Source of the DNA: Puniceicoccaceae bacterium
Lineage (GTDB): Bacteria; Verrucomicrobiota; Verrucomicrobiia; Opitutales; Oceanipulchritudinaceae
Length of the DNA: 64,000 nt
Direction of reading: 5' to 3'
Assembly (NCBI GenBank): GCA_040830765.1
Contig: JBFOMH010000017.1
Location: 128,001 to 192,000, forward strand
A program made the translations under genes and the position numbers. This document shows positions 36,288 to 64,000 of this stretch, piece after piece; position 1 is the first letter of the stretch, and every line of letters starts with the position of its first letter. The notes beneath the pieces are model-generated. The model was not told where the DNA came from and did not search any database. It saw only the letters and a list, made by a program, of their open reading frames with translations.

Positions 36288-36786
36288 CCTTTGAATTCCT
36301 TGATTGTGGGAGACAGCAAATTATTCGAATTTGTTCCAACACTTGCGCGACCTTCGAGCAAATTCATTTTCATGAAAGAAGGTGAAATAAGCTGACGAGG
36401 TTTTCTGCCCAGGTTTGCCGACTGAGGGAAAGGGATAGGAGCTTTGTTCTCCCTGGCCTATTTCTGGTCCTTCCGGGTGGCAGGCGGGACTGCATTGAAA
36501 TATTCACTGGGCCCCTGCGGCGCGCTTATATGAGGAAACGTGTGCGATGATTTCACTACAGGTAGCCGGATTTACTGACTCTTGGATTCCATTGGAGCTC
36601 TTTAAAGCGGATCGATAACCTTCGAGATGAGAAAATATAAGGGCTGAGGCTCTAAAAAGCAGGTTGACTCCGGGGCTGTAATATTTATGCAAGTACTTAC
36701 GTGGAAGTAATTTCACTATTCCTTGAATCCGACCGCTTACGCTCGGCGTTAGCGGTGCTATCACGTTGCAAAAATTGGAGTCTTCA

Positions 36787-38691
36787 ATGAGAAAGAACCT
36801 GTCCCGCACACCTCGTAAACATAAACTCCCAATTTGGGCCGGCTTCCTCGCCTTGGCGATTCCGGCCTTTTTTGTTGCCCCGATAAATCTGTCGGCTGCT
36901 GATATGGCCGACCGAAGCCAGTCTTCGATGGTGGGTGAGACCTACCGCGTCGATGGTATTCTCTTTGTCTTCCAGAGGGAGCATCCTGAGAACCCCTCAG
37001 CGGGTAAACTCGCCGGCGTCCCAATCGAGCTGAGCAAGTCAGCCTCCGGTTATGCCGCTCCCCGAGGCGATGACTCAGATGTCCAAACCAGCGTGGCAAA
37101 TATTGGTGACTCAGCCGGGAGTCGACTCACCGGGGGTGCCATCCAGCATATCGCGACCTCGGTATTGACCTACTTGAACGAGTCGGGCTTGGCAGGTGTC
37201 TGGGTCGGGGCCCACCCGGGGGACATTGATCCGCAAACAGGTGAAGACCTTCGTCCGGGGAAGTCCGGAAACCTGCGCCTTCTGGTGCAAACGGCAGTCA
37301 TCGGCAAGGTGCGGACGCTTGCCCGGGGTGAGCGGGTGCCAACAGGCGACTCCGTGAACAATCCCGCTTACGATTGGATGCTGGAAGGTTCACCGGTCAA
37401 GCCGGGTGCCTCGTGGGCCGACTCCGCCCTTCTCAACAGGGATAAAATTGGCGACTACGCCCGCTGGCTCAGTCGCCATCCTGGCCGCCGGGTAGACATT
37501 GCAGTCTCTCCCATCCAAGACGAACCGGGAGCGGTGGCCCTCGATTATATTGTCCAGGAACAGAAGCCAGTTTCCGTATGGGCCCAGGCAACCAATACCG
37601 GGACTGAGCAAACCGCCGACTGGCGGGGCTCCTTCGGGCTGCAGAACAACCAGTTCACCGGCAACGACGACCAGATCGAGTTGTTCTATTCCTCAGCCGG
37701 GATGGACAGTACCCAGAATTTAAGCGCGCGTTATGAAGCGCCCCTGATGAATAACCGGAATGTTCGTGTGCGCATCAATGGTGGCTGGAACAAGTATACT
37801 GCCTCCGATGTTGGATTTGGTGAACTGGATTTCAAGGGCAAGGGATATAACATCGGACTCAGCGGCGTGCACAATATCCGCCAGCGTGGTTCCCTTTTTG
37901 TCGACCTCGTCTATGGTCTGTCGCTTGAGAACACCACCGTCGATAACCAGGTTGTCGGGCGCGAGGGTGAAGGTGAGTTCCTTTTCCCGATGATTGGGCT
38001 GGAATGGGAAAGGTACACCCGCTTTGGCAACACCATTGGCGGTGTCAGCCTGCGCCACAATGTCCTCGATATTGAGCAGGACGACCTTGATGCCCTTGGC
38101 CGCACCCTGGCCGAGGATAAGTTCACCATCCTCTCCTGGTACTTCTCCCATAACTTCTATGTGGACCGGATCCTCGACAAGGAGGCCACCAGCCTGGCTC
38201 ATGAGATTGCCATTTCCCTTGGCGGTCAAACCTCCTTCGGTTCACGGACGCCCCCGAACTACCAGAAAACGATCGGTGGTATGTACACGGTCCGCGGTTA
38301 TCCCGAGTCGGTCATAGCCGGCGACAATGTGGCCCACGGATCGATCGAGTACAAAATGCACATCCCGCAGTTAATGGGGGTTTCCCAGGACCCCGGTACC
38401 GGCCCCATATTCGGTGGGCCCTTCCGCTACCTCCCGCAGTATCCCTACGGGGTGACGGACTGGGACCTGGCCCTCAAGGGCTTTATCGATGTCGGTTATG
38501 CCGGAGCGGCTGACAAGCTCGACTTTGAATTTGACGAGACACTCGTCGGTGGCGGGATTGGCTTTGAGCTTCGCTACCGCCGCAATTTCTTTGTCTCCGT
38601 CGACTGGGGTGTCGCCATGAAGGACACCAAGTATCCGGCAGTAACCGACGGAAGTTCCCGGGTCAGCATTTCCGCGACCGTCATGTATTGA
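36787..38691 (+). CDS. Two-partner secretion outer-membrane transporter TpsB (ShlB/FhaC/HecB family)
   Basis: Signal peptide; POTRA-like region; N.G...T; conserved lid motif GGMYTVRGY; C-terminal beta-strand ending in Tyr; directly upstream of a TPS-domain gene. Confidence 0.92.
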   Translation: MRKNLSRTPRKHKLPIWAGFLALAIPAFFVAPINLSAADMADRSQSSMVGETYRVDGILFVFQREHPENPSAGKLAGVPIELSKSASGYAAPRGDDSDVQTSVANIGDSAGSRLTGGAIQHIATSVLTYLNESGLAGVWVGAHPGDIDPQTGEDLRPGKSGNLRLLVQTAVIGKVRTLARGERVPTGDSVNNPAYDWMLEGSPVKPGASWADSALLNRDKIGDYARWLSRHPGRRVDIAVSPIQDEPGAVALDYIVQEQKPVSVWAQATNTGTEQTADWRGSFGLQNNQFTGNDDQIELFYSSAGMDSTQNLSARYEAPLMNNRNVRVRINGGWNKYTASDVGFGELDFKGKGYNIGLSGVHNIRQRGSLFVDLVYGLSLENTTVDNQVVGREGEGEFLFPMIGLEWERYTRFGNTIGGVSLRHNVLDIEQDDLDALGRTLAEDKFTILSWYFSHNFYVDRILDKEATSLAHEIAISLGGQTSFGSRTPPNYQKTIGGMYTVRGYPESVIAGDNVAHGSIEYKMHIPQLMGVSQDPGTGPIFGGPFRYLPQYPYGVTDWDLALKGFIDVGYAGAADKLDFEFDETLVGGGIGFELRYRRNFFVSVDWGVAMKDTKYPAVTDGSSRVSISATVMY

Positions 38692-38771
38692 TTTATTGGC
38701 TACAGGAATCCTGTACTGTCCAAATGCAAACACTTTAAATTCATCCATCCCCACAAATAGGCGTATAAGTC

Positions 38772-41700
38772 ATGATACGAAATAAAAAGCACCTCATCCG
38801 CCCCATGCAATTCAGCAGCCTCTTCGAAGGCATCCTCCAGCGGTCCTGGCGAAGAAAGGGCCGTCAACTGACGAGCTTCATGGTTCCCATTTTTGTTGCC
38901 AGCGTTCAGGGGATAGCCGGTCCCGAGGGAGAACAAGTGGCCGCAGGGGACGTCCGCTTCAACCGGCCCGACACCGCCAGCACCCACATTTATCAGGACA
39001 GCATGCAGGCCATCGTCAACTGGCGCAGCTTCAACGTCCAGCTGGACGAGTCGGTCCAGTTCTTCCAACCCAACGAGATGGCCAGCATCCTCAACCGGGT
39101 GATGCAGAACGATCCTTCGCAGATTGCCGGAAGCCTGACCGCCAATGGGCGGGTGTTCATCGCCAATCCGGCCGGGGTGATCTTCGGGGCCAACGCGGTG
39201 ATAGACGTCGGCCAACTGGTGGCCGCTGCGGGGAACATTTCCGATGCCGACTTCCTCGGTGGAAATTACCGGTTTTCCGGGTTGCAGGGTGCAGTCGAGA
39301 ACTACGGCACCATCAACGCCAACACGGTGGCCCTGATTGGGCGGACCGTGGGTAACTATGGCCAGATCCTGGCACCCGCGGGAACCGTCATCATGGCGGC
39401 AGGGGATGAATTGTATCTGGTGGAAGACCAGGGATTCGGCCACTTGCGGGTGCAGGTTGCATCTGTGGACTTGGCGGATGACACGGAAGGTTCCAGTGGC
39501 GCGTATGGTGCAGGGGACGCCTATGCCCTGGCGGCGGGGAACTACGGTCTTATCGAAGCGGGTGATGTGTCCGTTGAGGCGGAACGGGTTATGCTTTCCT
39601 ACGGGTCCACAATTGATGCCGGTGGAGAAAGTGGAGGCAATATCTCGATTGACGCGGAAGCCATTCTGCATGAAGGCACACTTTCGGCTACTGGCAGTAG
39701 CGGCGCAGGCGGTACTGTTAATCTGGACGCTGGATTGGACTACACGGCCATTGGATCGGCAGTGGTTGACGTATCCGGTACCACCGGTGGGGACATAACC
39801 CTCACCACGTCGGGGAAAATCATTAGCTCAGGAACATACCTGGCACAAGGTACCGATGGGGCAGGGGGCCAGATTGATGTTGGCGGTCCTGGGTCGATTG
39901 GCCTTCTCAGTGCCACACTGGATGCATCCGGCACTGCCGGCGGAGGTGTGGTTCGTCTCGGTGGTCCTCTTCAGGGTGGACGTGACGGCAACGGCGATTT
40001 GCCGGTGGCAAGTTCAACAATCGTTTCACCGGGCAGCGAATTGCGGGCAGACGCCACGGGAGCCTCTGGCGACGGTGGTGAAGTCATCATCTGGAGTGAA
40101 GAGGCAACCGAGTTCTATGGTATTGCCAGCGCACGGCCGGGACTTGAGTCCGGGGCTGGCGGTTTTATCGAGCTTTCCTCTGCAGGTCAATTTGTCTTCA
40201 CCCAGGGTGAAAATCTGCAAACCGGTCGTGGCGATCGGTTGGGTGAGGTTTTGCTGGATCCCAAGAGTATCATCATCACGGACGCCAACGGGCTGGACTT
40301 GATCCGGACAATTACCGGCAACTCCCAGATTCTCCGTGAAGGAACCCTGGAGCTGGACAATGGAGACGAATTCGGGGAAGACGTGGCTTTCAATCAGGCG
40401 GGCAACCTCTTCATCGTGGGCGCTCCTGGAGATAGTGCCGATGGCATAAATCCAAACGGGGATGGGGTTGTCTACCTGTTCGGTATCGAGACGGATAACC
40501 TCGGGTTCGCCCCGATTCTCGAGAAAAGACTCGGGGACGGGACGACGCTGTCAGGCGGAGGCACCCTGGATATTTCCACGGCAGGCCGTTTCGGAAGTGC
40601 TGTTGCGGTGAATGAGACCGGGAACCTGCTCGCCGTCGGTGCCGAGGGGGACGACGGTGATGGTGCGGGAAATGCAACCGGGGCCGTCTACATGCTGTCC
40701 ATTGATGTGAACAATCCGAATGCAGATCCAGTCCTCGAAACCGTCCTTGATGACAATGATGTCACACTGGCCGCCGGAGACAAGTTCGGCAGCGCGGTGG
40801 CCTTCAACCAGGATGCCGATATCATGGGTGTCGGTGCTGAGGGTGACACAGGAGGGGCTGGATCGGTTTTCCTTTTCGACATCAGTACGTTCAACGCTCC
40901 AGTGATCGGACTTGGCGGAAACCCCGTGACCAGTTCGACCGGCGGCGCCGTTGCCTCCGGCGCAGCAACTTTCGGCAGTTCCGTATCCTTCAACGGGTCC
41001 GGTAATGTCATGGCCATCGGTGCAGAGGAATCCACCTTCAGTGGTGGCTCCAATCGCGGCGGTGTTTATATCTTCACCCTGGATCCCGACAATCTCAACG
41101 TCACCCCGACCTATCAGCAGAGATTCCAATACAGTGATTTTGGCGAGCCGGCGCTCGGTTCCTCAAACAACAACCTGCGTTTCGGCAGTGCGGTCGCTTT
41201 TAACTCTGACAACACCATTCTCGCGGTGGGTGCGCGCGGACAACCGGGTTCCGGCGGTGCGACCAACCAGGAGCCCCGGGTCTTCCTGCTCAGTCTGAGT
41301 GACGTTTCAACCCTGCCCACTTTCGGGCAGAGAATTGATTTCAATACAGTACCGCTCGGTGGTGGGCCACCCCTTGCCCTCGACTCGGAGGGGCAATTCG
41401 GTGCGGGTATCAGTCTCAGCGGTGACGGAACCGCTTTGTTGGTGGGTGCTCCGACGCAGGATGGCGGCGGCACCGACTTGGGTGAAGTCTTCCTTTTTGA
41501 AATCGATCCGAACAACCTGAGCCAGGCGCCTGACCTCGCCCAATTGCTCACGGACACCTCTCCAATCCGCATCTACGACCAGCTTGCGCTGGGCGGGGGC
41601 GACAGCTTTGGTAACTCTGTTGCTTTGAGCTCCGCAGGTGACGTTCTTGTTGTTGGCGCGCCCGGCAATGACACTGGCGGTGCCGACGCCGGCGCGGCCT

Positions 41701-44700
41701 ATGTATTCTCTGTCAATCCGGCCGACCTCGCCCAGCAGATCACACTGGTCAAGCTGGTTGCCGACAGTACAGTAACCGGCCTCTCTTTGGCGGACGGGGA
41801 TAATTTTGGCAGCGGTGTAGCTGTCAATGGGCTCGGCGACATCATCGCCTTTGGTGCATCCGGGACGAATGTGGGCGGCGCGGATCGAGGCGCGGCCTAC
41901 ATCATCGAGTTTGACACGACCAACCTCTTCGCGGATCCGGTTCTGCAACTGACGCTGAATAACAGCAATGTCACAGGCTTGGCGAACAACGACCTCTTCG
42001 GGCAGTCGTTGGCTCTCGACAACCCAGGCGGTGTCCTGGTGGTCGGCCAACCGGGTGATTCCAGCGGCACTGGCGCCGTTGATGTCTTCAGCCTGAACAC
42101 GACGACTTTCGCGTTCACCCAGGAAAATACGATAGACGGCACTACTCCCGGCCTGACCCTTGCCGCCGGGGATGCATTCGGGACGGGAGTCGCCCTGAAT
42201 GCCGACGCCTCGATTCTGGCGGTTGGTTCCCCCGGAGCTGAAGGGGGTGGAACTAACGAGGGAGCAGTGTCCATTCTTTCTCTCGGGGCCCTGGCTGCGG
42301 ATCCCACCCTTGAGCAGACCATCGATTCCACCACCACTTCGGTGGTCCTTGATGATGACGATGCCTTCGGGACCTCGGTCGCCTTGTCCGGCGGTGGTGA
42401 AATCCTCGCCGTCGGCGCACCTTTCGCGGACGGACCAGCAAACGGTAATCCGGACAGCGGTGAAGTCTTCCTCATGCGCCTGAATTCTTCCAATCTTTCT
42501 ATCCCGGCGGCAGAAATTGCCAAACTGGAACGGGATACTGTTTTGGCCGACGGATCGAATTTCACTGCAGTGGATACAAATGACCAGCTCGGTTCTGGTG
42601 TGGCCCTCAATGACGGGGCAAGCATTTTTGTCGGCGGAGCCGGCAACTCGGACATCAGTGGTCCGGCTACCGGGGCAGCTCACCTCTTCACTCTGGAATT
42701 GGGTCGTGATCCGACCCAAGCCCTTTTTGGCGTAGAGCCGGATGCCGAGTGGATTGTCAGTCCGGCAGACATCGTCTCCGTACTGGCCGGCAATAACCTT
42801 ACCATGCAGGCCAACACCGATATCACGGTGGAATCCCTTGTCGATGCCTCCCTCAATCCCAGCGCAGGCAATCTCACTTTCCAGGCCGGTCGTTCCATTT
42901 TGCTTAACGAAAGCATCCTCCTGAATGGTTCTTTCACCGCTACCGCCAATGATCCGGGTGCCCTCGCAGCCCATCGGGATGCGGGCGATGCCACTATTAC
43001 CATGGCTGACGGCACCAGTATCGACACCAGTGCCGCCAATGGAAGCATCACTTTGGCTTATGGCGTTGGGACCAACGGCAATGACGCGACCGGTGCCATG
43101 ACGCTCGAAACCCTCAACGCCGGTACCGGCGCCATCGACATCGATACCGTGGCCAATCAGGGTGGGGCAGTTTCCTACGAAGACATCCTGCTTAACGGTC
43201 CCGTGACCGGCGGGCTGGTTTCCGCGCAAGGTAATGCCATCATCAGTAATGTGGATGGAACCATCACCGCCAGCGACGATATTCTCCTCGAGACCGCCTC
43301 GACCGGACGTGCCGGCGGAGATATCGATCTCGAAGCAGCCGTTTCCCAGACCGGAGCCGGTACATTGACGATGCGTCCGGTGGATTCGGCTACCCCGATT
43401 CGCGTCGGAGGAACAACAGCCGGTCAGATGGGTGTGGACGTCCCCACTCTCGACCAGGTGCAGGAAGGCTTTTCAACCATCATTGTCGGTTCCTCTGGCC
43501 AGACAGGTGACATTAATGTCGCCGGGGGTCCGACGACCAACTGGAAGGACGACCTTCTCTTCGAGACCGACAGCGGCGACATTAACGTGCTTGCCGATGT
43601 CAACACGACGGGTTCCACCGATCCCGCCGACATTACCTATCGCAGTGCTACCGGTGTAACTACCATGGCCGGTAACCAACTGACGGACGGCGGCAATGTC
43701 ACCGTCGAAACGCCATTGCTGGTCGATGGTACTATCCTCATCGATACGGAAGCCGGTGATGATCTTGTCGCCGGGAACGTGACGCTCAACGGTTCAACCA
43801 TTGGTAGCCGCACCGATGCCGCCGTTGACGCAGCCAACGGTAATACGGATACCCTGACCATTGATGCGCGCGGTCTCATCGACGGGAATGTGGATATCGA
43901 GGGCCATGTTGGGAGTAATACAATCACAGGCGCGGGCGGTGTGATTGGATCCCTGATCGTCGAGGGTGCCGCCACGGTCGACCTTTCCGATGTGACCACC
44001 GCCACAGGCGGTATCCTTGTCGGTAATAGTAAAGCCACTACAGGACCAATCAATCTTCACGCCAGCACCTTGGATACCAGTGGCGCGGGGGCCGGTGTCG
44101 CCACCGGCAACATTGTCCTCAATGCAGATGCCTCCCAGGACATCGAGCTCCTCGATGGCGATGTGCAGCTGAACACCAATGACCTTGGCTACAATGGCGG
44201 AACCAACGTTAATGCCGACGGTGCTATCACGATTGCCGGCAACCAGATTGACGGCCAGACTTTCACCAACGGACTGTCTCTCGATAATGGCAGCAACTCC
44301 CTCGACCAGAGCACGGATATGCCGGTCCTGACCGAGCTGACACACTTCGTTGCCCTCAGTGATGCCAACGTAACGGTTCTCAATCCGAACAATGACGTGG
44401 CCACAGTGGCTGGTCGGACAACAACAGGCAGCTTCGCCTACCGTGATGCCAATGACCTGACTGTCGGTACAGCCGCCGGCGTGAGCGGTATCACAGCTGG
44501 GGCGGATGCCATGGCCGAAACCGTTGCTGGGACTCTAACTGTTGACCAGTCCGTGTCCGGCGGGGCAGACGTCCTTCTTTCCGCTGGCGGTGTGGCCAGC
44601 AATCTTGACCTGAATGCTTCCGTCGACTCCGGCGACGGTACCTCCCTGCTGGCCGGCAACTCGGTCTTGCAGAGTGCCAATGTCACGGCCGGTGGCAGTA

Positions 44701-47700
44701 TCGACGTGGAAGCAACAAACGGAGCCATCACCATGGATCCCGGCTCCAGCTCCACAGCGACCGATGCCAACATCCGTTACGCCGCTAATGGTGACGTGAC
44801 AGTTGGAAGCCTCGCTGCAGGTGCGGGCGATGTCAGTATTTCGTCCACCACTGGTAACATCGTCGATGCCCAGGTGACCGACGCCGTCATTGCCGATCCT
44901 GAAGGTTTTGCCATTAATCTTGGCCGCACGGTCAATGTATCCGGTGCCGGGTTGCGCATGAGCGCCGCCGGTGATGCCGGTGCCGCAGGAACACCTTTCG
45001 ACACCAGTGTCGGTACGGTTGCTGCCGATGTTAGCGGCAGTACTTACATTTACGAGAGCGATGCTGTTACCGTTGGTACAGTCGGCCCGGTTGCTGTTGA
45101 ACGCGTCGTTATCGACGCCGCCAATACAACCGCCAGCGATGCCGCTCTGGCCGGCATCAATGCGGGTGGAAATGCCAAGCTGGAAACCATCAACGGCACC
45201 ATTGCTGTCAATGACCCGGTTTCCGCAGGGACCGATGTCCAGATTGCGGCAAATGGCGCCGGGAGTGATCTTCTTCTCAATAACTCCGTTGCTGCAGGGC
45301 AGAATGTTACCCTGCTGGCCCGGAGTGCCATCATTCAGGATGCCAATGTCAATGCCGGCGGGACGATTGATGCTGAGGCATTTGACAGTGTCATAACGAT
45401 GAGTGCGGGAGCGACATCGACCGCAGCCGGGAATATCCGCTATGCTGGTGATGGAAATGTCACTACAGGTATTCTGGATGCAGGGGCCTCCTCGGTCAGC
45501 GTTGTCTCTGAGAATGGAAGCATTCTCGACGCACAGAACGACACTGTCGGTGTGGATGGAGAAGGATTTGCCACGCAGACAAATGATCCGCGGACAGCCA
45601 ATCTCATCGCCGCCAACGTACGGCTCCAGGCAGCCGGTGATATCGGCAGCGCAGGGAATCCGGTCGACTCGACGGCAGGCGTTGTCGCCGCAAGCAGCGG
45701 AGGCAGTACTTACCTTTATGAAAGCGACGCCCTCACTGTCGGAACGGTGGCCGCTGTCTCGGTTAACCGGGTCGAGCTGGCCTCCACAACCTCAACGGTG
45801 ACGGATATAGCCGCTTCAGGCATCACCGGAGGCACCAACGCCAAGGTGGAAACTGTCAGCGGCTCGATGACGGTTGATGATACCGTAACAGCAACAGCAG
45901 GCGACGCGCTTCTGGCAGCCAATGGGGCAGCCAGCGACATGGATGTAAATGCCGATGTCGCTTCTGGTGGCAATACAACCATTTTGGCCCGCAACAGCGT
46001 CCTTCAGGGAGCCAACATCAATGCCGGTGGAACCATCGACGTGGAAGCCTTTGACGGGGTTCTGACAATGGAAGCGGGTTCATCTTCAACGGCCACGGAT
46101 AATGACACCCGCTACGCCGGTCACCAGGATGTGACCATTCAGGTCCTCAACGCCGGTACGGCTGACATCAGCGTGGTTTCGTCCGATGGCTCCATCGTTG
46201 ACGGGCAGGCTGACACAGTTGGTGTCGATGCGGATGGATTTGCGACAAACGCTGGCCGCACGGTCAACTTTGAATCATCCGGACTGCGCCTCGCGGCAAG
46301 TGGTGATATCGGAGCGGCGGGCAACCCGTTGGATTCCACGGTTACCACCGTAGCCGCCAATGCGGGTGGCAGTGCCTATGTTTACGAGACGGATGCCCTC
46401 ACCGTCGGCGCGGTGGAAACGACCGTCAACCGGGTTGGTCTTGATTCAAGCCTGACCGGTGTGACCGATGCTTCGCTCTCTGGTGTAACAGGTGGTGCGA
46501 ATGCAAAGGTCGAGACGATTGATGGAACTTTGACAGTTGATACCCTTGTCACAGCCACCAGTGAAGACGTTCTTCTGGCAGCTAACGGAACCGGTGGGGA
46601 TGATGATTTGGTAATCAATGCCGACGTCAGCGCCGGGGACAGCGTCAGCCTGCTGGCCCGCGACAATGTTGCCCAGAACGCCAATGTGACCTCCGACGCC
46701 GACGGTGCGGAAGACACAGACGGTACTATCGACGTGGAAGCATTCAGTGGTTCCATTGTTATGGCGCCCGACGCAGTTTCCACAACCGACGACGACAACA
46801 TCCGCTACACGGCCGAAGTTGATGCCGGACTGGGCATTCTGGATGCCGGAACAGCTGATGTCAGTGTCATTGCCCGGACAGGACGCATTTATGATGCCCA
46901 GGGTGATACAGTCGGAGTCGACAGCGAAGGCTTTGCCACGCAGACGGGTGATCCGCGCGTGGTTAATATCCTTGCCTCCGGTATGCGGGTTTCCGCTGCC
47001 GAGGATCTCAATGATGATGGTGCAACGGTCGATCCGCTGGACACTTCCCTTGATGTCCTTGCCGGGACTGTCGGAGAGAGCATCTACATTTACGAAACAG
47101 ACGCCCTGACCATCGGTACAGTTGATGCCGTCGCAGTCGAGCGGGTTGCCCTTGAGTCCACTACGTCCACAGTCACAGACGCTGGTTCTGTTTCCGGTCT
47201 CCTGGCTGGTACAAATGCCAAGGTCGAGACAATCGATGGCACCCTGACGGTGGACCAGTTTGTCGAAGCAACCACCGCGGACGTACTCCTTGCCGCCAAT
47301 GGATCCGGCAGTGATCTCGATATCAATGACACGGTTACATCCGGTCGCCACACGACCCTGCTGGCCCGTAACGAAATTCTCCAAAGCGCCAACGTGACCG
47401 CCACCGGCACTATCGATGCTGAAGCCTTTGACGGCTCTATCCGGATGGACCCGAATGTGGTTTCCGACGCTGATGATGACAACATCCGCTACACCGCGGA
47501 AGTCGATGTCGAGCTCGGTATCCTCGATGCCGGCACAGCCGATGTCAGTGTTGTTGCGACCACCGGCTCCATCCGCGATGTCCAGGACGATCTTGTCGAC
47601 CGCGATGGCGATGGCTTTGCCACCAACGCGGCGCGCACGGTCAACATCATTGCCAATGACCTTCGGCTCGACGCGCAGGGCAGCATCGGTGAGGCCGATG

Positions 47701-53700: not shown

Positions 53701-56700
53701 GAAACGACCTTCGCATGGATGCGCAGGGCAGTATCGGTGAAGCTGATGATCCGATTGACACCTCCGTCGATACCCTGGCCGCCGTCGCCGAGACGGGAAG
53801 CACCTATGTCTATGAAACGGATGCCCTGACCATTGGAACGGTTGCTCCGGTCACCGTCAATCGAGTGGCCCTTGAGTCCACTATCGCTGATGTGACGGAC
53901 GCCGCCGACCTGGTTGGTTCCACTGCCGAGGTTCACGCCAAGACCGAAACCATCGCCGGGACCCTTACGGTTGATGATCCGGTCCTTGCCAACACCGGCG
54001 ACGCCCAACTGGAAGACAAGGGCACCGGCAGTGAACTCGACATTAATGCCACGGTCACATCAGGTCAGCACACCACAATGCTGGCTCGCAACGATATCCT
54101 CCAGAGTGGCAATGTCACAGCCGGCGGAACGATTGATGCCGAAGCCTTCACCGGCTCCATCCTCATGGACCCGGATGCAGTTTCTGATGCCGACGATGAC
54201 AACATCCGCTACACCGCGGAAGTCGATGTCGAGCTGGGAATCCTTGATTCCGGAACCGCTAACATCAGCGTGCTTGCTGACACCGGCGACATCCGCGACG
54301 TCCAGGATGACCTTGTCGATCGCGACGCTGACGGCTTTGCCACTAACACGGCCCGGACCGTCAACCTCATTGGTGACAACCTGCGCCTCGACGCGCAGGG
54401 CAGCATCGGTGAAGTCGATGATCCGATTGACACGACCGTCAACACAGTTGGTGCGGTTGCTGAAACCGGTAGTATCTATCTCTACGAGTCCGACGAACTG
54501 GTCGTTGGTACGGTCGGTTCGGTTACCGTCAATCGTGTGGCCCTTGAGTCCACGGTTGCTGATATTGTCGACACGGCTGACCTCTCCGGCTTGACCGGTG
54601 AAGTCAATGCCAAGGCGGAAACCATTGATGGTACCCTTACCGTCGATGATCCGGTTCTCGCCAACACGGGCGATGCCCAATTGGCCGCCAACAGCACGGA
54701 TAGCGACCTTGATATCAACGCCACGGTCACCTCCGGTCGCCACACGACCCTCTTGGCCCGCCGCGATATCCTCCAGAGTGCCAATGTCACTGCTGGTGGA
54801 ACCATTGATGGGGAAGCCTTTGACGGCTCCATCCTGATGGATCCGGACGTTATCTCCGACGCTGATGACGACAACATTCGCTACACCGCACAGGTCGATG
54901 TCGAGCTCGGCATCCTTGATGCCGGAACTGGCAATGTCGCCGTCACGGCCACCACCGGTGATATCCGCGACGTCCAGGATGACCTTGTCGACCGCGATGC
55001 GGACGGCTTTGCCACCAACACGGCCCGGACGGTCAACATCATCGGTACCGACCTGCGCATGAGCGCAGAGGGCAGTATTGGTGAAGCGGATGATCCGATT
55101 GATACATCCGTCGACACGCTGGCCGCTGTTGCCAATACTGGCAGTTCCTACGTTTATGAAACGGATGCTTTGGTCATCGGGACCGTCGCCCCGGTCACGG
55201 TGAACCGTGTCGCCCTCGAGTCCAGCCTTGCTGACGTTACGGATGCGGCCGACCTCGTTGGCTCGACTGCCGAGGTCAATGCCAAGGCGGAAACGATCAA
55301 CGGTACCCTGACCATCGATGATCCGGTACTCGCCAATACGGGTGATGCCCAGCTAGCCGCCAATGGCGCTGGCAGTGACCTCGATATCAATGCCACGGTC
55401 ACCTCTGGTCGCCACACGACATTACTCGCCCGCAACGACATCCTGCAGAGCGGGAACGTGACGGCCGGCGGAACTATTGACGCTGAAGCCTTTAATGGCT
55501 CCATCCTCATGGATCCGGATACGGTTTCCGATGCTGACGACGACAACATCCGCTACACCGCGGAAATGGACATCGAGCTCGGTATCCTTGATGCTGGCAC
55601 CGGCAATGTCGCCATCACAGCTACGGCCGGTTCCATCATCGACGTTCAGGATGACCTCGTCGACGTGGACGGGGATGGCTTTGCCACCAACACCAGTCGC
55701 ACCGTCAATATCACCGGCACCGACCTGCGTTTGAATGCCGCTGAGGAAATTGGCGAAACCGACGATCCGATCGATACAATGGTCGACATGGTGGCTGCTA
55801 ATGCAGGTGGAGCTGTGTATCTGTATGAAAGCGATACATTGGCCATCGGCACCGTCGCCCCCGTGACGGTGAATCGCGTTGCGTTGGAATCCACCATTGC
55901 TGACGTCACCGATCCCGCCGACCTCGTCGGCGTGACCGCCACGAGCTACGCCAAGGTGGAAACCATTGATGGTTCCATGACGGTTGATGACGCTGTCACC
56001 GCCACCAGCGGTGATGTCCTGCTCGCCGCCAATGGGACTGGCGGGGATGATGACCTCGTCGTCAACGCTGCCGTTACCTCCGGTGACTATATGAGCTTAC
56101 TGGCCCGCGACAGCGTCCTCCAGAACGCCAACATCACTTCCGATACGGATGGTACTGAAGACGACATCGGCACCATCGATGTGGAAGCCTTCAGCGGCTC
56201 CATCATCATGGATGGCGATGCGGTCTCCCTCACGGACAATGACAACATCCGCTACACCGCGGAAGTCGATGCCGGTCTCGGCATCCTCAACGCCGGTGAT
56301 GCTTATGTAAGTGTCATTGCCCGGACGGGCCGTATCTACGACGCCCAGGGTGACACCGTTGGTGTGGACAGCGAAGGCTTCGCCACCCAGACCGGTGATC
56401 CGCGCGTCGTCAACATCATTGCCAATGGTATGCGGGTCTCCGCCGCTCTCGATCTCAACGACGATGGCGGAACGGTTGATCCGCTCGATACGTCCCTCAA
56501 CACCATCGCTGGTGTAGTTGGACAGAGCATCTACATTTACGAAACGGATGACCTGACCATCGGTACCGTCCCGGCCGTTCCGGTCGAGCGTGTCGCCCTC
56601 GAGTCGACCACCGCCACGGTAACGGATGCCGCTCCGGTCTCCGGACTGGATGCCGGCACCAACGCCAAGGTAGAGACCATCGATGGCTCCCTCACCGTGG

Positions 56701-59700
56701 ATGACTTCGTCAACGCCACGGATAATGATGTTCTCCTCGCCGCCAATGGCGCAGGGAGCAATCTTGATATCAACGATACGGTGACCTCTGGTCGTCACAC
56801 GACCCTGCTGGCCCGCAACGATATCCTCCAAAGCGCCGACGTAACAGCCGGCGGCACCATTGATGCCCAGGCCTACACTGGTTCCATTCTTATGGATCCG
56901 GATGTGGTTTCCGATGCCGACGATGACAACATCCGCTACACCGCGGCAGTCGATGTCGAACTCGGAGTCCTCGATGCCGGTACTGGCGATGTCAGCGTCA
57001 TCGCTGACACGGGATCCATCCGCGATGTCCAGGATGACCTGGTCGATGTTGATGGGGACGGTTTTGCCACAAGCTCGACTCGCACTGTCAATATTCTTGG
57101 CACCAATCTGCGACTCGACGCAGAGGGCAGCATCGGAGAGGTGGACGATCCGGTTGATACGTCAGTTACTCAAGTGGCTGCCGTAGCAGAAACCGGCAGC
57201 ACCTATCTCTACGAGACCGATGCCTTGACCCTCGGGACCGTTGCTCCGGTTACGGTGAATCGGGTTGCCTTGGAGTCGACCATTGCTGATGTCACGGATG
57301 CGGCCGACCTCTCGGGCTCAACTGCCGAGGTCAATGCCAAGACAGAGACCATCAATGGCTCCATTACGGTTGATGATCCGGTCCTCGCCAACACCGGCGA
57401 TGCCCAGTTGGCCGCCAACGGCACAGGAAGTGACTTGGACATCAATGCAACGATTACCTCCGGCCAGCACACCACACTCCTGGCCCGGAACGGTATCATG
57501 CAGAGTGCCGACGTAACTGCTGGCGGAACCATTGATGTGGAAGCCTTCGACGGTTCCATCATCATGGAAGGGGATGCTACCTCAGATGCCGATGACAACA
57601 ACATCCGCTACACCGCGGAGGGTGACCTTGCCCTTGGCATTCTCGATGCAGGTACGGGTGACGTCAGCCTGATTGCCACCACTGGTCGTATCTACGACGC
57701 CCAGGGTGACACCGTTGGCGTCGATGCGGATGGCTTTGCCACCCAGACTGGTGACCCGCGCGTGGTCAATGTCATTGCCTCAGGACTGCGGATTGATGCC
57801 GCCCTGGATGTCAATGATGACCCGTCCGCCGGCACGGTCGATCCGATCGACCTGTCCGTCGATACCCTCGCGGGTGTCGTTGGGGAGAGCATCTATGTTT
57901 ATGAAACCGACGACCTGACCATCGGGACAATCGATCCGGTATCCGTCAATCGCGTCGCCCTCGAGTCGACCACCGCCGTGGTCACCGACGACACGCCGCG
58001 TGTCGGCCTCGTCGCCGGGACTAACGCCAAGGTGGAAACCATCGACGGTTCCATCAATGTCGACAACATCGTCGAAGGCACCTCAGCCGATGTCCTCCTC
58101 GCCGCCAATGGCGCAGGCAGTGACCTCAACATCAACGACACCGTCACCTCGGGTGGAAACACAACCCTCCTGGCCCGCGATTCCATCGCCCAGGATGCCA
58201 ACGTGACTGCCGGCGGCACCATTGATGCCCAGGCCTTCACCGGTTCCATCCTCATGGCCGCGGACGTCGTTTCCGATGCCGATGATGACAACATCCGCTA
58301 CAATGCGGAAGTTGATGTCGAGCTGGGTATCCTTGATGCCGGTACCGGCAACATCGCCGTCGTCGCCAACACCGGTGACATCGTCGATGTCCAGGATGAC
58401 ACCGTCGGCGTGGATGCAGATGGCTTCGCCACCAATACCGGTCGCACGGTCAACCTTATCGGTACAGACCTGCGCCTGAGTGCCGATGGCGACATCGGTG
58501 AGGCCGGTGATCCGATTGACACTTCAGTCGATACAATCGCCGCTACCGCTGCAGGTGGCAGTGCTTATGTCTATGAGACCGACGCCCTGACCATTGGGAC
58601 GGTTGCACCGGTCACGGTGAACCGCGTTGCCCTGGAATCCACCACTCGGGACGAAACCGATGCCGATAGCGCCACAGGTGTCCTGGGTATCATGAATTCC
58701 AAGGTGGAGACCATTGACGGCAGCCTCACGGTCGACGGACCGGTTGGCCCGACCTTCGACGATGTCCTGTTGGCCGCCAACGGTTCCGGCAGTGACCTCG
58801 TCATCAACGATGTTGTCAGCTCCGGTGCCGATACGACCTTGCTGGCCCGCAATTCGATCAGCCAGAACGCTGACGTGACCGCGGGTGGAACAATTGATGC
58901 CGAGGCCTTCGAGGGTGACATCACCATGGCCGCCGATGCCATGTCCACGACCACAGATGGCAATGTCCGTCTAGTGGCAAGTGGGGATGTTACTGTCGGC
59001 GTTGTTGATGCCGGTACGGCTGACATCAGCGTGACCGCCGGTGGCAATATCCTCGACGCCCAGGCCGACACAGTCGGTGTGGATGGGGATGGATTCGCCA
59101 CTAACAGCGACCGCACGGTCAACCTCGTTGCCTCCGACCTGCGGCTGGATGCCGCTGGCGGAATCGGTGAGGCTGGTAACCCGGTCGACACTTCTGTCGA
59201 TACGTTGGCCGCAAGCGCTGCTTCTGGCAACGCCTACGTCTACGAATCCGACGCCGTGACGATCGGTACCGTTGCTCCGGTAATGGCAAACCGCGTCGCC
59301 CTTGAGTCGACTTCAGCCGAGGTGACCGACGCCGCTGAGCTCGCTGGCGTAACCGCCGAGCTCAACGCCAAGGTCGAGACCATCGACGGAACGTTGACCG
59401 TTGACCAGGCCGTGACCGCCACTGTCGGGGATGCCCTTGTGGCAGCCAACGGCTCCGGTGACCTTGACCTTAACGCGGACCTTTCCGCCGGTGGAAACGC
59501 CACCCTGCTGGCCTCGCAAGGCCTCATGCAGGATGCTGACGTGACGGCCGGTGGCACCATTGATGCCGAAGCCTTCGCTGGCTCCATCTCGATGGGCGCC
59601 GATGTGGTATCAGATGCCGATGACGACAACATCCGCTACACCGCGGCGACAGACGTCGAACTGGGTACACTTGATGCCGGTGCAGGCAACATTGCCGTGA

Positions 59701-62700
59701 CTGCCGGTGGTAGCATCCACGATGCGCATGTTGATACAGTCGATGTTGATGCCGATGGGTTTGCAACCAACAGCGGACGCACGGTGAATCTCGTTGGTTC
59801 CGGTGCCCGCCTGACCGCCGGCACGGACGTTGGCGAGGCCGGGGATCCGATTGACACCTCGATTGCTACACTGGCGGCTTCCGCTGGCAGTGGCAGTGCT
59901 TACGTCTACGAGACCGATGCTCTGACTATCGGGACCGTTGCTCCGGTGACCGTGAATCGGGTGGCCCTCGAGTCGACCACGGCCGATGTGACCGATGCGG
60001 ACAGCCTTTCCGGGGTGACCGCCGGTACGAACGCCAAGGTAGAGACCCTCGGCGGTTCCCTGACTGTGGACGATGCCGTGGAAGCAACCGGTGGCGATGT
60101 CCTGCTGGCCGCCAATGGCGGTGACTTGGTCATCAATGCCGCGGTCATGGCCGGACAGAACGCAACCTTGCTTGCCTCTCAGGGCATCATGCAGTCGGCC
60201 AGTGTCATGGCTGACGGCACGGTTGATGCCGAGGCCATTGCGGGTTCCATCACGATGGATGCCGCTGCCACGACCGAGACCACCAATGGCGACATCCGCT
60301 ACGCCGCGGGTGACGATATTGCCGTCGCGTCACTGGTTGCCGGGCCCAACTCGGCCTCCCTGGTCGCCGGTGGCGACATCACCGATGCCGGTACCGATGT
60401 CAATGTCCAGGCAGCCACGCTGCAACTGACAGCTGGCGGCTCCATTGGCGCGGATGACGCTTCGATCACGGTTGGTGCAGGCCCGGTTGCCGCACGTGCC
60501 GGTGGCGACGTCACCCTCGATGCGATTGGTGAACTGGTTGTCGGGGCGGCTGATGCCGTCACGGTTAACCGCGTCGCCCTTGAGTCGAGCACCAGCACAA
60601 TCGAGGATGCCGCTCTCATTGGCATCGAGGCCGGTGGGGATGTGAGTCTCAGCGCTGAGAATGCGATTCGCCTGGCCGTTGCCACGGACAGCCTCGATCC
60701 GGCATCCGATCCGGTACCGGGTGTGGACGGCAACGCCGCGACCATCGTCAGCGGCGGGGCCACGACCCTCGGCACGGCGGTTGTACTTGCTGAAGACTCC
60801 CGTATCGCTGGTGGAACCTCAGTGACTTTCACCTCCACGGTCGACAGTGTCGCTGGTTCCAATAATGACCTCGCGGTCCATTCACCGGATACAACCTACG
60901 CCGACAATGTCGGCAGCACCCAGGCGCTTGGTAACCTGTCAACGACAGATGCCGGCGACGGGATCATCCGCGTCGGTGGGGATGTCACAACGGTTGATGG
61001 CCAACTCTACGGTGAAGCTACCCAGTTGATTGCGGATAGCGTCGCCTTGACCGACTCCGGCAGTGGTATCCAACTTGATTCCACGCTCGACGGTGACGGT
61101 TCGGCTGCAGCTGACCTGACCTTGAATGCGACCGGTGACATTACCATCGCTGGCGATGTTGGTGCCACCAACCGCCTTGGCGATGTCGTTGTCGAAACAG
61201 TCAATGACCTGACCATCGATGGTTCGGCCAGTGTTGCCTCCTTCACCCAGAACGCCAGTTCGGCCTCGGGTGAGGATAGCGGCGATACAACCTTGACCGG
61301 TGCCCTCGATACCGATGGTGGTGCTGTTTCCATCAACACCACATCCGGCTCCATTGCCGTTAACGCCATTGATGCCGGGGCAGGGAATATCACCCTTGTA
61401 CCGGACAGTGGAACACGGTTGAGCAGCGGAGGCAGTTACAGCATCCCTGAAGGTACCATCACCTTGAGTGGTGACCTCACGGGTGGCTCCATCCAGCTTG
61501 GTCCGAATGACCGGGGAGTGAACGCCCTTGGCGTTTCCTCCATCATTGGAACCGATGCGGATGGCCAACTGGCCATTACCGCATCCGGCAGCCTGACCAT
61601 CGGCGAGGATGAAAAGTTTGCCGTCCTCGACGTTGATGGCGACGGCGTCAACCAGCTGACCCTGCGCACCTCCGGTGGAGCTATCCAGCATGGGGACCTG
61701 ACCATTGAGGGCGACTTGCTTGTCGATGGTGGTGGTACCGCGCCGCTGACGCTCGTCACCCGCGACGCCGGTGAACAGCAGTCTGACCTCGACACGAACG
61801 AGGATGGCGTGATTGACCAGCTCGACACCCAGATGGGTGACGGTATCGATGTCGTCGCTACGGGATCCATCACCTATACCGGAGTCGATTTCCTGACCGA
61901 GGTTGGTGAGACTCCGGGCGGTGATATTGGACAACCTCAATTCGCCTTGACTGATTCAACACAAATCAGTCAGGAAATCCTCGAGCGCTATGTCGTCCGT
62001 GAACTGGACCGCTTCCCGCAAATCCGGGGCGACGTCGTCAATCCGAATGCACTTGGCGGCTTGATTCTCGATGCCATCGCCAATGGTGAAATCGTCAATA
62101 ATGTCATTGATGCTATCAGGGGTGTTGGCCGCCCGAGCCTGGCAGAATCCCTCCCGGCTCCGGAGAAGTACCCGCGCCTGCTCGATGTTCACCTCACTCC
62201 GCTGGATGTTGATACCAGCAGCGAGGTAGCCATCGGGGACGCCCTTGGAATCCAGATTCGCGACCGCAACGCCGCTGAACTCGGTTCCGAGAATGTCGTC
62301 ATCTATGATGATGTGGCCAATGGACCAGCCATCTCCGTGGCCCGCCTCAACTCTGCGGCAGCCTCTGAAGCGGTTGACTCCACTCGCTCCATCCTGGGCA
62401 GCAGCGCCCGCCTCAAGGGACAACTGGCCGAAGCCCTCTCCGGCTATATGGCCCAGTCTGAATCCTTCGATGCGAGTGATTTCCGGGAATACGTCATGCA
62501 GTCACGGCAGCATGCCGAGGCCGAGCGCATCATGGATACGCTCTACCAGCTCTGGATGTCCATCGAGGTGCTCGGATTGACCGAGGACGATATCGAGAAA
62601 ATCAAGGAGTACATCTACTCCGAGATTGCTCCCGCCAACCTCACCACCACTCAACTGCACGATGCGGTCATGTCCGGTGATGAGCCCATGTTGGCGCTTG

Positions 62701-62711
62701 CAGGGAACTGA
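38772..62711 (+). CDS. Giant TpsA / filamentous haemagglutinin-like exoprotein (7979 aa)
   Basis: TPS domain ([38 protein letters not shown]); beta-helical stalk; 12 FG-GAP repeats; ~24 tandem ~224-aa repeats; helical C-terminal domain. Confidence 0.95.
40360..42700 (+). repeat. Twelve FG-GAP (integrin-alpha-like) repeats inside TpsA
   Basis: 12 copies of D.FG..VA.N..G..L.VGA.G, from DEFGEDVAF to DQLGSGVAL. Confidence 0.85.
44438..60660 (+). repeat. Intragenic tandem array of ~672-bp (224-aa) units
   Basis: YE[ST]D anchor seen 23 times (45050-59906), spaced exactly 672 bp from 47090 to 55154; degenerate flanking units at 44438 and ~60520. Confidence 0.95.
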
Positions 62712-62732
62712 TTCGTTCTTCCTACTTGCCTT

Positions 62733-62776
62733 TCCGGGTCCGGTCCGCCGCTGACTGGCGGGCCGGAACCCCCGGA
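62733..62776 (+). terminator. GC-rich hairpin after tpsA
   Basis: tccggg-tccggtccgcc-gctgact-ggcgggccgga-acccccgga; no clear U-tract. Confidence 0.4.
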
Positions 62777-62791
62777 CTGGGAGGCAATTAT

Positions 62792-63226
62792 ATGGATAAG
62801 CGAAAGGTTCTCATTCTCTGCACCGGTAACTCCTGCCGCAGCCACATGGCGGAGGGCATCCTGCGGCACCTGACAGGCGACCTCTTTGAAGTCTTCAGCG
62901 CCGGATCCAAGCCGGCCGGATACGTCCATCCCATGGCCATCGAGGTCATCGGTGAGCTGGGCATCGATATTTCCGGCCACACTTCCAAGCACCTCGACCA
63001 GTTTCTTGATGTCGGGATCGAGGTTGTTGTCACTGTCTGTGACAACGCCAACGAGTCCTGCCCGGTCTTTCCGGGTCAACTCGCCCGCCACCACTGGCCC
63101 TTCGAGGACCCGCCCAAGGCGGCCCGGCCCGGGGAATCCGAAATCGATGCCTTCCGGCGCATCCGGGACGAGATTTACCGAACCCTGCAGGCGTACGTCG
63201 ACGGATATCGCGATGCCTCGCATTGA
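62792..63226 (+). CDS. arsC: Arsenate reductase, thioredoxin-dependent LMW-PTP fold
   Basis: CTGNSCRS P-loop, [10 protein letters not shown] redox cysteines, [22 protein letters not shown] before ATG 62792. Confidence 0.88.
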
Positions 63227-63388: not shown

Positions 63389-64000
63389 ATGCTCAAGATA
63401 TTTACCCCGTTGGCCGGTCTCCTGATTTGCGCCTTTCTTCCGTCCTTTCTGGCGGCGGCCATCGTACCGGTCGACAGCGGCAGCTACACCACGACCTTCC
63501 CCGGTACCGACATTGCCGGGCGGAACGGCTATCCCGGCGGAACGCCTCAACTGAGTGGTGCCGCGGTCGGGCGTCCGGTCCCGACTAACGACTGGTGGTC
63601 GGCCCTGCTGAACAACAACCATGCCAGTAATCTCTTCAATTATCCGCTGACCATGCGGACCCTGCCAACGGGTTTGGACATCGGCCTGATCGTGCCCGGT
63701 TCTGGACCCAACGGCAGCACCCAGCCGATCAGCGACATCAGTCCCGTCATTGTCGGGGTGAGTGGCCTTACGGCGACCCGGGCCACGGTGGACGACTATT
63801 CCGACTGGACGGTGACCATCGGCTGGGACTCTGGCGAACACTCCCTGCGGGCGACCACCGGCATCGGCATGCCCTTTATTCATTTCAAGAAGAGCGCCAG
63901 CCATACCGCCTCGGTCACGGTCAATGTGGGAACGGTCACCGTCGACGGGGAAATCCTCCTCATTACCAATTCCCAGGGCGGGGCCAATTTCGCGGTCTAT
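63389..64000 (+). CDS. Secreted GH81 endo-beta-1,3-glucanase, 5' part (runs off the window)
   Basis: Manual translation MLKIFTPLAGLLICAFLPSFLAAAIVPVDSGSYTTTFPG...PVPTNDWWSALL...DYSDWTV...GMPF; absent from the ORF track because there is no stop in the window. Confidence 0.82.
   Translation, partial: MLKIFTPLAGLLICAFLPSFLAAAIVPVDSGSYTTTFPGTDIAGRNGYPGGTPQLSGAAVGRPVPTNDWWSALLNNNHASNLFNYPLTMRTLPTGLDIGLIVPGSGPNGSTQPISDISPVIVGVSGLTATRATVDDYSDWTVTIGWDSGEHSLRATTGIGMPFIHFKKSASHTASVTVNVGTVTVDGEILLITNSQGGANFAVY

Follow-up and report, generated by a model that had tools for sequence, protein, structure and literature searches.

Which kind of protein is encoded by a bacterial reading frame of 23.9 kb, and how could such a chain reach the cell surface? 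This question is raised by a locus of a Puniceicoccaceae bacterium (assembly GCA_040830765.1, contig JBFOMH010000017.1, positions 128,001 to 192,000; these 64,000 nucleotides (nt) are called the window). Here a gene for an outer-membrane transporter, tpsB, is followed on the same strand by tpsA, a genuine and uninterrupted gene that encodes a putatively secreted fibre protein. By every sequence test that can be applied the pair belongs to the TpsA/TpsB family, a well-known adhesin family, in which this TpsA is an exceptionally long and unusually assembled representative, and does not constitute a new type of system. It is probably a type Vb, or two-partner secretion (TPS), system that exports a giant fibre to the cell surface, most likely an adhesin. 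The genes and the segments of TpsA, with amino acid (aa) positions, are as follows.

36787..38691, plus strand: tpsB, Omp85/TpsB-type outer-membrane transporter, 634 aa from its ATG
38772..62711, plus strand: tpsA, ATG start, single open reading frame of 7,979 aa
38772..38918, plus strand: signal-peptide-like region, aa 1 to ~49, a basic stretch followed by a 15-residue hydrophobic stretch (hydropathy window and by eye)
39000..39644, plus strand: TPS secretion domain, aa 77-291 (PF05860, TIGR01901 and PDB matches)
39645..40346, plus strand: Gly-rich extension, aa 292-525 (composition and EtpA alignment)
40347..42746, plus strand: FG-GAP block, aa 526-1325, 12 motif-defined repeats 60-74 aa apart
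42747..44261, plus strand: non-periodic beta-rich segment, aa 1326-1830, rich in G, T, A and D, leading into the array
44262..60293, plus strand: acidic-repeat array, a partial unit (aa 1831-2000) and then 23 full units (aa 2001-7174; phmmer self-scan)
60294..61691, plus strand: degenerate repeat and non-periodic beta-rich tail, aa 7175-7640, with the degenerate unit at aa 7201-7367
61692..62708, plus strand: C-terminal region, aa 7641-7979, with an acidic loop that resembles an EF-hand, a linker of low prediction quality and a helical bundle

The gene pair and its repeat array

In the list of open reading frames (ORFs) of the window the two genes are separated by an intergenic gap of 80 nt. 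The tpsB frame is open from a TTG at 36766, and its in-frame ATG at 36787 has a GGAG just 5' of it. The product matches the Pfam family ShlB (PF03865; ShlB/FhaC/HecB) over aa 256-514 (E=1.7e-8, 34.7 bits, cut-off 22.7), and the NCBIfam model Omp85_fam matches its C-terminus below the family cut-off. A VRGY motif at aa 502, within GGMYTVRGYPE, is present, which we take to be the loop-6 VRGY/F motif of Omp85/TpsB proteins. A distant TpsB relative with 24-28 % identity, from a Verrucomicrobiota metagenome-assembled genome (MAG; locus L001 below), carries VRGF at the aligned position. The N-terminus is hydrophobic and, judged by eye, compatible with a signal peptide, and the ~220 aa between this peptide and the barrel have a size that suits POTRA domains. 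A sigma-70 promoter scan upstream of tpsB gave 0 sites, and an Rfam scan around the tpsB/tpsA locus revealed neither a riboswitch nor any other RNA family.

The only stop in the translation of tpsA is the terminal one, which leaves 23,937 nt stop-free. The protein has a mass of 800.8 kDa, a net charge of about -960 (D+E 15.4 %, K+R 3.4 %) and not a single cysteine. In a collection of 5.8 billion proteins it has one member, on one contig of 377,541 bp. Its first ~49 residues would form a long signal peptide. Both family matches of the TPS domain lie above their cut-offs (PF05860, E=4e-26; TIGR01901 adhes_NPXG, E=1.6e-22), the motifs LNRV (aa 107) and NPAG (aa 132) are present, and among PDB sequences the domain matches EtpA (8cpk, E=8.5e-37), HMW1 (2odl, E=5.7e-24) and HxuA (E=2.6e-13).

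The Gly-rich extension is probably a beta-helix; residues 329-473 of TpsA align to residues 228-372 of EtpA. In the following block FG-GAP_2 (PF14312) is matched in the first two 1000-aa segments of the protein (E=1.9e-28 and 1.2e-16), and the block is presumed to fold into one or more beta-propellers, the 12 repeats not being divisible into the seven-bladed units known from integrin propellers. The segment aa 1326-1830, which gave no Pfam match even at E<=5, may again be a beta-helix. For these scans TpsA was cut into 1000-aa segments, with Pfam covering 8/8 and NCBIfam 6/8 of them (all but aa 4001-6000). The Pfam rows FLgD_tudor, DUF2171 and RAMA in these segments were set aside as noise, as they had no stretch passing alone or were below the cut-off.

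An earlier note on this DNA had described tpsB followed by an uninterrupted 23.9-kb ORF, a TpsB/TpsA pair, and a TpsA composed of TPS domain, FG-GAP block, about 24 acidic repeats and a helical tail. ORF list and translation bear out the first statement; PF03865, PF05860, TIGR01901 and the PDB matches of the TPS domain agree with the second, and the domain order was recovered segment by segment.

The largest part of TpsA is the repeat array. Its full units are 221-233 aa long (12 of the 23 have exactly 224 aa), and a hidden Markov model (HMM) built from them finds 25 matches in TpsA, in agreement with the number of about 24 given in the earlier note. The array is even more acidic than the whole protein (D+E 16.9 %, K+R 3.5 %). 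The unit alignment contains 41 invariant columns, among them D32, D36, D41, G44, F45 and A46 of an acidic loop with the consensus D-x-D-G-[DE]-G-F. No credible Pfam or NCBIfam family was found for array and tail in the segments scanned, and the repeat profile reached PDB sequences at chance level only (E=0.25).

The central units R05-R16 share 75-93 % identity as protein and 74-85 % as DNA. For the 66 pairs of these 12 units dN is 0.090, dS 1.06 and dN/dS 0.086 (nonsynonymous and synonymous divergence), and neighbouring units are not more similar to each other than distant ones. By this pattern the units are old duplicates under strong purifying selection. With synonymous sites near saturation and the protein held, the array offers a clean natural case of long tandem coding repeats without homogenisation. 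No two units are more than 85 % identical as DNA, and exact DNA repeats in the ORF reach 80 nt at most. The array is far outside what chance would give, and it is neither inflated by assembly, a doubt that had been raised earlier and is answered by the divergence of the units, nor a collapsed set of near-identical copies.

Some units form subtypes with shared insertions, namely R04/R18/R20 and R03/R17. Both subtypes occur in the same order in R03-R04 (46110-47483) and in R17-R18 (55548-56930), the protein identity being 85 % between R04 and R18 and 60 % between R03 and R17, which have an acidic insertion in common. This recurring order together with the insertions suggests a block duplication within the array. 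On the minus strand, 13 ORFs of 131 aa with ATG starts (47090, 47762, 48434 ... 57899) are spaced by 672 nt or multiples thereof, and one further ORF of 130 aa lies at 59240, the whole set spanning 47090-59632; these frames seem to arise from the repeat being read in antisense and not to be genes.

The fold of the array was predicted with AlphaFold on three consecutive units (672 residues), the alignment consisting of 21 triplets from the window and two MAG segments. The model has a mean predicted local distance difference test (pLDDT) score of 96.3 and a predicted template modelling (pTM) score of 0.90 and contains nothing but short strands, which in the latter half of every unit recur in a regular 5-3-3 pattern of ~22 residues. 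Because the pTM reaches 0.90 over 672 residues, the units are predicted to pack as a single rigid body. The very long fibre proposed earlier thus finds support in the model, as a predicted long, rigid, beta-rich rod. The weak Foldseek matches listed for it are largely beta-solenoids (EtpA, autotransporter passengers, RTX blocks and ice-binding proteins); the match with the best template modelling score is the full-length EtpA structure (TMq 0.35, not significant).

About 6,550 beta-rich residues of TpsA lie outside the propeller block. Three scalings were applied to them: ~22 aa per coil of 0.48 nm, 24 strands per unit, and the ratio of mass to length of HxuA, for which excerpts of a 2017 review give 96 kDa and 12 nm (PMC5422565, used in this form throughout). 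The fibre would accordingly measure roughly 90-140 nm.

C-terminal tail and relatives

The tail is predicted less well than the array. For the last 500 aa AlphaFold gave a mean pLDDT of 70 and a pTM of 0.53, and a helical bundle at aa ~7861-7967 (model residues 382-488) stands out with a block pLDDT of ~78-92. The EF-hand-like loop near aa 7670 is a sub-threshold EF-hand_5 match (E=0.055). Against PDB sequences the tail had no match and a C-terminal profile reached chance level only (E=3.1); in the ESM Atlas the last 339 aa led to unnamed clusters only, with a best score of 0.77.

A phmmer search with aa 7175-7979 against 1.84 billion representative proteins returned 89 matches at E<=0.001, 22 of them at <=1e-10 and 4 at <=1e-30. 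The majority cover the beta-rich part only (tail residues ~140-400), and some of these carry TPS domains (P0013, P0015). The extreme C-terminus is common to 6/89 (P0003, P0005, P0006, P0014, P0021 and P0022) and is C-terminal in each; in P0014, P0021 and P0022 a helical end related to that of the window protein closes other beta-rich proteins. One further match of the beta-rich part, P0033 (4,895 aa), has a CHAT protease domain at its end (PF12770, E=2.9e-64). The Pfam rows MYRF_ICA, PolyA_pol and Pop8 in the tail relatives were discarded as noise (no stretch passing alone, or below the cut-off).

The closest relative is P0003, a fragment of 1,348 aa on a contig of 7,105 bp, which repeats the window order of units and tail with 68 % identity over 1,360 aligned positions. 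Counted per 100 aa the identity is mostly 66-77 %, with a dip to 43 % at aa 7801-7900, and the last 79 aa are 68 % identical. The best-conserved stretch is aa 7301-7400 (60672-60971), within the beta-rich tail, with a peak of 91 %; it may mark a site of processing or function. A word-index search with the last 330 aa retrieved P0003 only, which as a word-limited search is weak evidence of absence.

The repeat itself is more widespread. A genome scan with the unit alignment confirmed three loci from 155 pattern matches; the scanned genomes were GTDB representatives, and the genome of the window is evidently not among them.

L001, Verrucomicrobiota MAG: TpsB and a TpsA of 1,598 aa with TPS domain, DUF5649 and ~2 units
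L002, Kiritimatiellia MAG: TPS-bearing ORF, then ORFs with 4-6 units
L003, Planctomycetota MAG: 3 units in an open ORF whose neighbours are DotU/IcmF-like and FHA-domain genes

Their units are 39-45 % identical to those of the window, and the repeat HMM gave E values from 1e-27 to 1e-186 across the relatives. In L002 (5020-16837) the TPS-bearing ORF is followed by three repeat ORFs on the same strand, two of them overlapping, and the locus may be a single TpsA gene for ~3,900 aa broken by frameshifts or assembly errors. In L003 (4798-11263) the 3-unit protein has no TPS domain in the 984 aa available and adjoins a DotU/IcmF-like fusion gene; from this locus the 224-aa repeat may also be used outside TPS systems.

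TPS domain, DUF5649 and units occur together also in three library proteins, P0068 (3,094 aa, 9 unit matches), P0085 and P0082. The repeat-bearing relatives found to have a TPS domain are L001, P0068, P0085 and P0082, all of them smaller than window TpsA; of the others, L002 is possibly a broken gene and the rest are incomplete, as fragments or open ORFs. None of the repeat-bearing relatives L001-L003, P0068, P0085 and P0082 contains FG-GAP. In tblastn searches against L001-L003 the window tail, the FG-GAP block and aa 1326-1830 had no match, and aa 292-525 had one weak match, in L002.

The top feature match to aa 1-1600 in the ESM Atlas is a cluster automatically named 'FG-GAP repeat/TPS secretion domain-containing protein' (50 members, PF14312 on 76 %, score 0.94, 220/256 features in common), which is a lead and not an alignment; according to it, proteins with TPS domain and FG-GAP probably exist elsewhere. 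A word-index search among proteins of 4,388-13,964 aa with the TPS region and the tail found the query only (word-limited and weak), and a genome scan with a C-terminal alignment of four sequences confirmed 0 of 599 pattern matches. No full-length tpsA orthologue was found in these protein and genome searches. The view that the protein is an unfamiliar composite holds for the full combination, which was met only here and in one fragment of 68 % identity, but not for its parts, as the repeat occurs in other TpsA proteins and the Atlas points to TPS plus FG-GAP.

Proposed mechanism, alternatives and neighbouring genes

For a two-partner system with a giant fibre the following course is proposed. 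TpsA would be taken across the inner membrane by Sec via its long signal peptide; TpsB would recognise the TPS domain, and the chain would be threaded through the TpsB barrel and fold progressively into a beta-solenoid rod outside the cell, folding being the driving force. These steps are modelled on knowledge of type Vb systems (PMC5422565). The 23 conserved 224-aa modules could serve as a rigid spacer, that is as extender cassettes, possibly stabilised by Ca2+ bound to the invariant D-x-D-G-[DE]-G-F loop of every module. The best candidate for a ligand-binding module is the FG-GAP block with its 12 blades next to the TPS domain. The conserved helical bundle that closes the C-terminus, free of cysteine, is proposed to remain in the periplasm and to act there as stopper or anchor; in that case the FG-GAP block would come to lie at the distal tip. 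Precedents for such an end are the periplasmic C-terminal anchors of HMW1 and HxuA, which consist of a disulfide loop, the LapG-cleaved periplasmic tail of CdrA, and the C-terminal portion of FhaB, which is not secreted (PMC5422565). The helical C-terminus could reveal a second, disulfide-free mode of TpsA tethering. As to the earlier proposal of a surface fibre or adhesin, the TpsB/TpsA pair and the predicted rod speak for it, whereas secretion and the adhesin role are inferred, as are Ca2+ binding, topology, anchor role and ligand.

Several observations weigh against this picture. The locus is known here from its genes alone. In TpsB no POTRA family was detected with Pfam even at E<=5, and no PDB sequence matched it at E<=0.01. 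Foldseek against PDB gave 0/62 matches at E<=0.001 for the repeat rod, which is read as a beta-solenoid from its modelled strand pattern and the weak matches, and 0 matches at the same threshold for the tail, whose model is of only moderate quality and whose anchor role is drawn by analogy. The anchors of HMW1 and HxuA are disulfide loops and TpsA has no cysteine; any anchor must therefore work differently from theirs. Finally, the G+C content at third codon positions is lower in tpsA (0.656) and tpsB (0.679) than in the window housekeeping genes (0.70-0.78), with 0.684 in the adjacent pectate lyase gene, which could mean low expression or foreign origin.

A more far-reaching idea is possible, though doubtful: the locus might found an 'extender-module' class of TpsA in PVC-type bacteria (Planctomycetes, Verrucomicrobia, Chlamydiae), of which it would be the first full-length representative and which would correspond, within type V secretion, to the giant RTX adhesins. 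In this class a new, cysteine-free helical stopper at the C-terminus would hold the chain fast inside or beneath TpsB, the reach would be set by the varying number of Ca2+-dependent 224-aa beta-solenoid cassettes (1-9 in the relatives, 23-25 here), and binding would be left to the distal FG-GAP propeller block. If true, this fibre would exceed in length every type V fibre described so far, and repeat number would tune the reach of the cell up to ~0.1 micrometre or more.

Among the alternatives, the one that fares best is still unlikely. It regards TpsA as a shed extracellular matrix or scaffold, secreted by TpsB and released from the cell, to serve in biofilm or particle aggregates as a polyanionic fibre that binds Ca2+. 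The extreme acidity, with the charge of about -960 and 15.4 % D+E, would suit such a material, TpsA has neither a proven anchor motif nor a cysteine, and FHA and EtpA are among the TpsA proteins that are partly released (PMC5422565). However, the helical C-terminal domain is kept at the very end of seven proteins, namely window TpsA and the six matches named above, which suggests a terminal function in retention or processing; shedding after cleavage would still be compatible with this.

The surroundings of the pair bear on two further alternatives. The window is chromosomal, with genes for alanyl-tRNA synthetase, isopropylmalate dehydrogenase, PurH, PriA, a sigma-70 factor, subunits of a 2-oxoacid:ferredoxin oxidoreductase and a tRNA. 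Between 18964 and 36287 a trehalase-like glycoside hydrolase (GH), an alginate lyase, three pectate lyases (two with Ig-like domains), an arabinofuranosidase and a sulfatase are encoded, together with a ROK kinase, an SIS protein and a CitMHS-family transporter. The pectate lyase gene at 34398-36287 adjoins tpsB and is transcribed divergently. Downstream of tpsA follow:

62726..62787, plus strand: hairpin just 3' of the tpsA stop, no U-tract
62792..63226, plus strand: gene of the low-molecular-weight (LMW) phosphotyrosine phosphatase/ArsC family, 144 aa (PF01451, E=1.8e-20), 80 nt after tpsA
63389..64000, plus strand: open ORF running off the window; its GH81 match (E=0.0055) is sub-threshold, with 16.4 bits where the cut-off is 25.6

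The hairpin has a minimum free energy of -46.2 kcal/mol compared with -30.3 +/- 3.4 for shuffled sequences (z=-4.74) and was not called in a consensus terminator scan. Its outer stem (62726-62795) pairs with the GGGAGG just 5' of the ATG at 62792, so that it may be a terminator, an mRNA-stabilising element and/or a translational mask for the downstream gene. Nothing evident connects this phosphatase-family gene (62792-63226) with the TPS system. A minus-strand ORF from 62651 to 63904/64000 (417/449 aa) overlaps the end of tpsA, is rich in R, G and P and matched no family; this antisense frame is probably spurious, the real genes being those on the plus strand.

Quite improbable is a fibre that captures or processes polysaccharides, its beta-helix modules or FG-GAP propellers binding or cleaving algal or plant glycans. 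The idea draws on the neighbouring pectate lyases, alginate lyase, sulfatase, arabinofuranosidase and trehalase-like GH, and on the fact that pectate and alginate lyases themselves fold as right-handed beta-helices; one PL6 alginate lyase appears among the weak Foldseek matches (E=0.53). Yet no lyase, GH or carbohydrate-binding module family was found by Pfam in 8/8 TpsA segments, tpsB is divergent from the adjacent pectate lyase gene, the downstream neighbour is unrelated, and neighbourhood by itself is weak evidence. The beta-glucanase gene once named as the other flank is unconfirmed, since the immediate neighbour is the LMW phosphatase gene and the next ORF has only the sub-threshold GH81 match; attachment to polysaccharide particles, which was deduced from the neighbourhood, is otherwise unsupported. 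By that same neighbourhood, a fibre amid genes targeting pectin, alginate and sulfated glycans may nevertheless bear on the question of particle attachment.

Very improbable is a contact-dependent inhibition (CDI)-like delivery system in which the C-terminal ~340 aa are a new effector for neighbouring cells. Six usable patterns of the pretoxin type (VENN, ELYN, NEALV, LYVN, DAMV and a loose [VIL]EN[NS]) had 0 matches in TpsA. What would fit such a system is the giant size of TpsA, its C-terminal domain, which is not of the beta type and belongs to no recognised family, and a small same-strand ORF 80 nt downstream, and CdiA, with 180-650 kDa, is the largest characterised TpsA (PMC5422565). However, there is no abrupt C-terminal divergence from P0003, and the domain recurs in distant proteins, the opposite of what polymorphic toxins show; no toxin family emerged from the Pfam and NCBIfam scans of TpsA, and the downstream ORF encodes an enzyme of the LMW phosphatase/ArsC family (PF01451), which is not immunity-like. 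The earlier impression that the locus does not look like CDI is thus well founded on motif, C-terminus and downstream gene.

Scarcely credible, finally, is an artefact, be it an array inflated in assembly or an unexpressed, decaying giant gene: it could appeal to the one contig in the 5.8-billion-protein collection and the lack of a full-length orthologue, but read-length ambiguity cannot inflate units with <=85 % DNA identity and exact repeats of at most 80 nt, 23,937 nt are stop-free with a dN/dS of 0.086 over 66 unit pairs, and P0003 is an independent fragment with the same unit-plus-tail order at 68 % identity.

Comparison with known systems

The giant surface fibre put forward here resembles first of all EtpA/EtpB of enterotoxigenic E. 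coli and HMW1/HMW1B of Haemophilus influenzae, which are the best PDB matches to its TPS domain. EtpA and HMW1 have a beta-helical passenger of large repeat modules, as is predicted for window TpsA, and are ~5 times shorter (the deposited EtpA chain has 1,564 aa). To our knowledge neither of them contains an FG-GAP block. The EtpA and HMW1 loci carry a glycosyltransferase gene, whereas none is found between or beside tpsB and tpsA in the window. The C-terminus of HMW1 is periplasmic as an anchor (PMC5422565), a role like that proposed for the window tail.

PDB sequence searches with parts of TpsA reported no match to the filamentous haemagglutinin (FHA) of Bordetella. FHA repeats are coils of ~19-20 aa, and in this respect the conserved 224-aa super-repeats of window TpsA are unlike them. 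The FhaB/FHA-FhaC system combines a beta-helix rod with a large unsecreted C-terminal portion that controls maturation (PMC5422565 and excerpts of PMC4542190), and FhaB has ~370 kDa (PMC4542190, same excerpts) compared with 801 kDa for window TpsA.

CdiA/CdiB share with the window pair a TPS domain, a beta-helical filament (predicted in the window) and a distinct C-terminal region. Unlike CdiA, window TpsA has no VENN-type motif, no polymorphic C-terminus, no immunity-like neighbour and no FHA-type repeat family (Pfam, 8/8 segments).

Giant RTX adhesins such as MpIBP, LapA and SiiE are exported by type I secretion and consist of tens of near-identical acidic extender modules, probably stabilised by Ca2+, which hold a binding region at a great distance from the cell, with a cell-proximal retention domain. 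This logic of extender and retention may resemble that of window TpsA; the route differs (type I secretion system (T1SS) versus TpsB), as does the building block (Ig-like beads versus a predicted beta-solenoid). Window TpsA as an RTX adhesin itself was rejected, as Pfam found no RTX or T1SS family in 8/8 TpsA segments and 25 neighbouring ORFs.

Giant genes are common in the wider group. Excerpts of one study report genes >20 kb in 15/29 planctomycete genomes, with predicted roles in adhesion or carbohydrate binding (PMC5177795), and excerpts of a preprint describe proteins of at least 10,000 aa as frequent in PVC phyla (10.1101/2023.11.21.568195). In these excerpts two-partner secretion, TpsA, hemagglutinin and FG-GAP are not mentioned. 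In the literature search FG-GAP and two-partner secretion came up together only in a general biofilm review, and the best matches for PVC phyla and TpsA did not mention TpsA, which is a weak negative. On the same excerpts size by itself is unsurprising in PVC-type bacteria (PMC5177795, 10.1101/2023.11.21.568195). For TpsA proteins a range of ~100-650 kDa is given (PMC5422565), so that the 801 kDa found here agree with the earlier statement that characterised TpsA proteins are smaller. The size poses the question how a single 16-stranded TpsB barrel handles ~8,000 residues without ATP.

Also close are the uncharacterised TpsA relatives L001, L002, P0068, P0085 and P0082, which have the same ~224-aa repeat family and an N-terminal TPS domain, with TpsB adjoining in L001. 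They differ by 1-9 unit matches versus 25 in window TpsA and by DUF5649 repeats in place of FG-GAP. New in the window are the size of 801 kDa, the 23-25-fold expansion of an uncurated TpsA-associated repeat, FG-GAP where the relatives have DUF5649, and the conserved, unassigned C-terminal domain; the 224-aa unit is a module that these relatives share, and its fold is predicted with high confidence.

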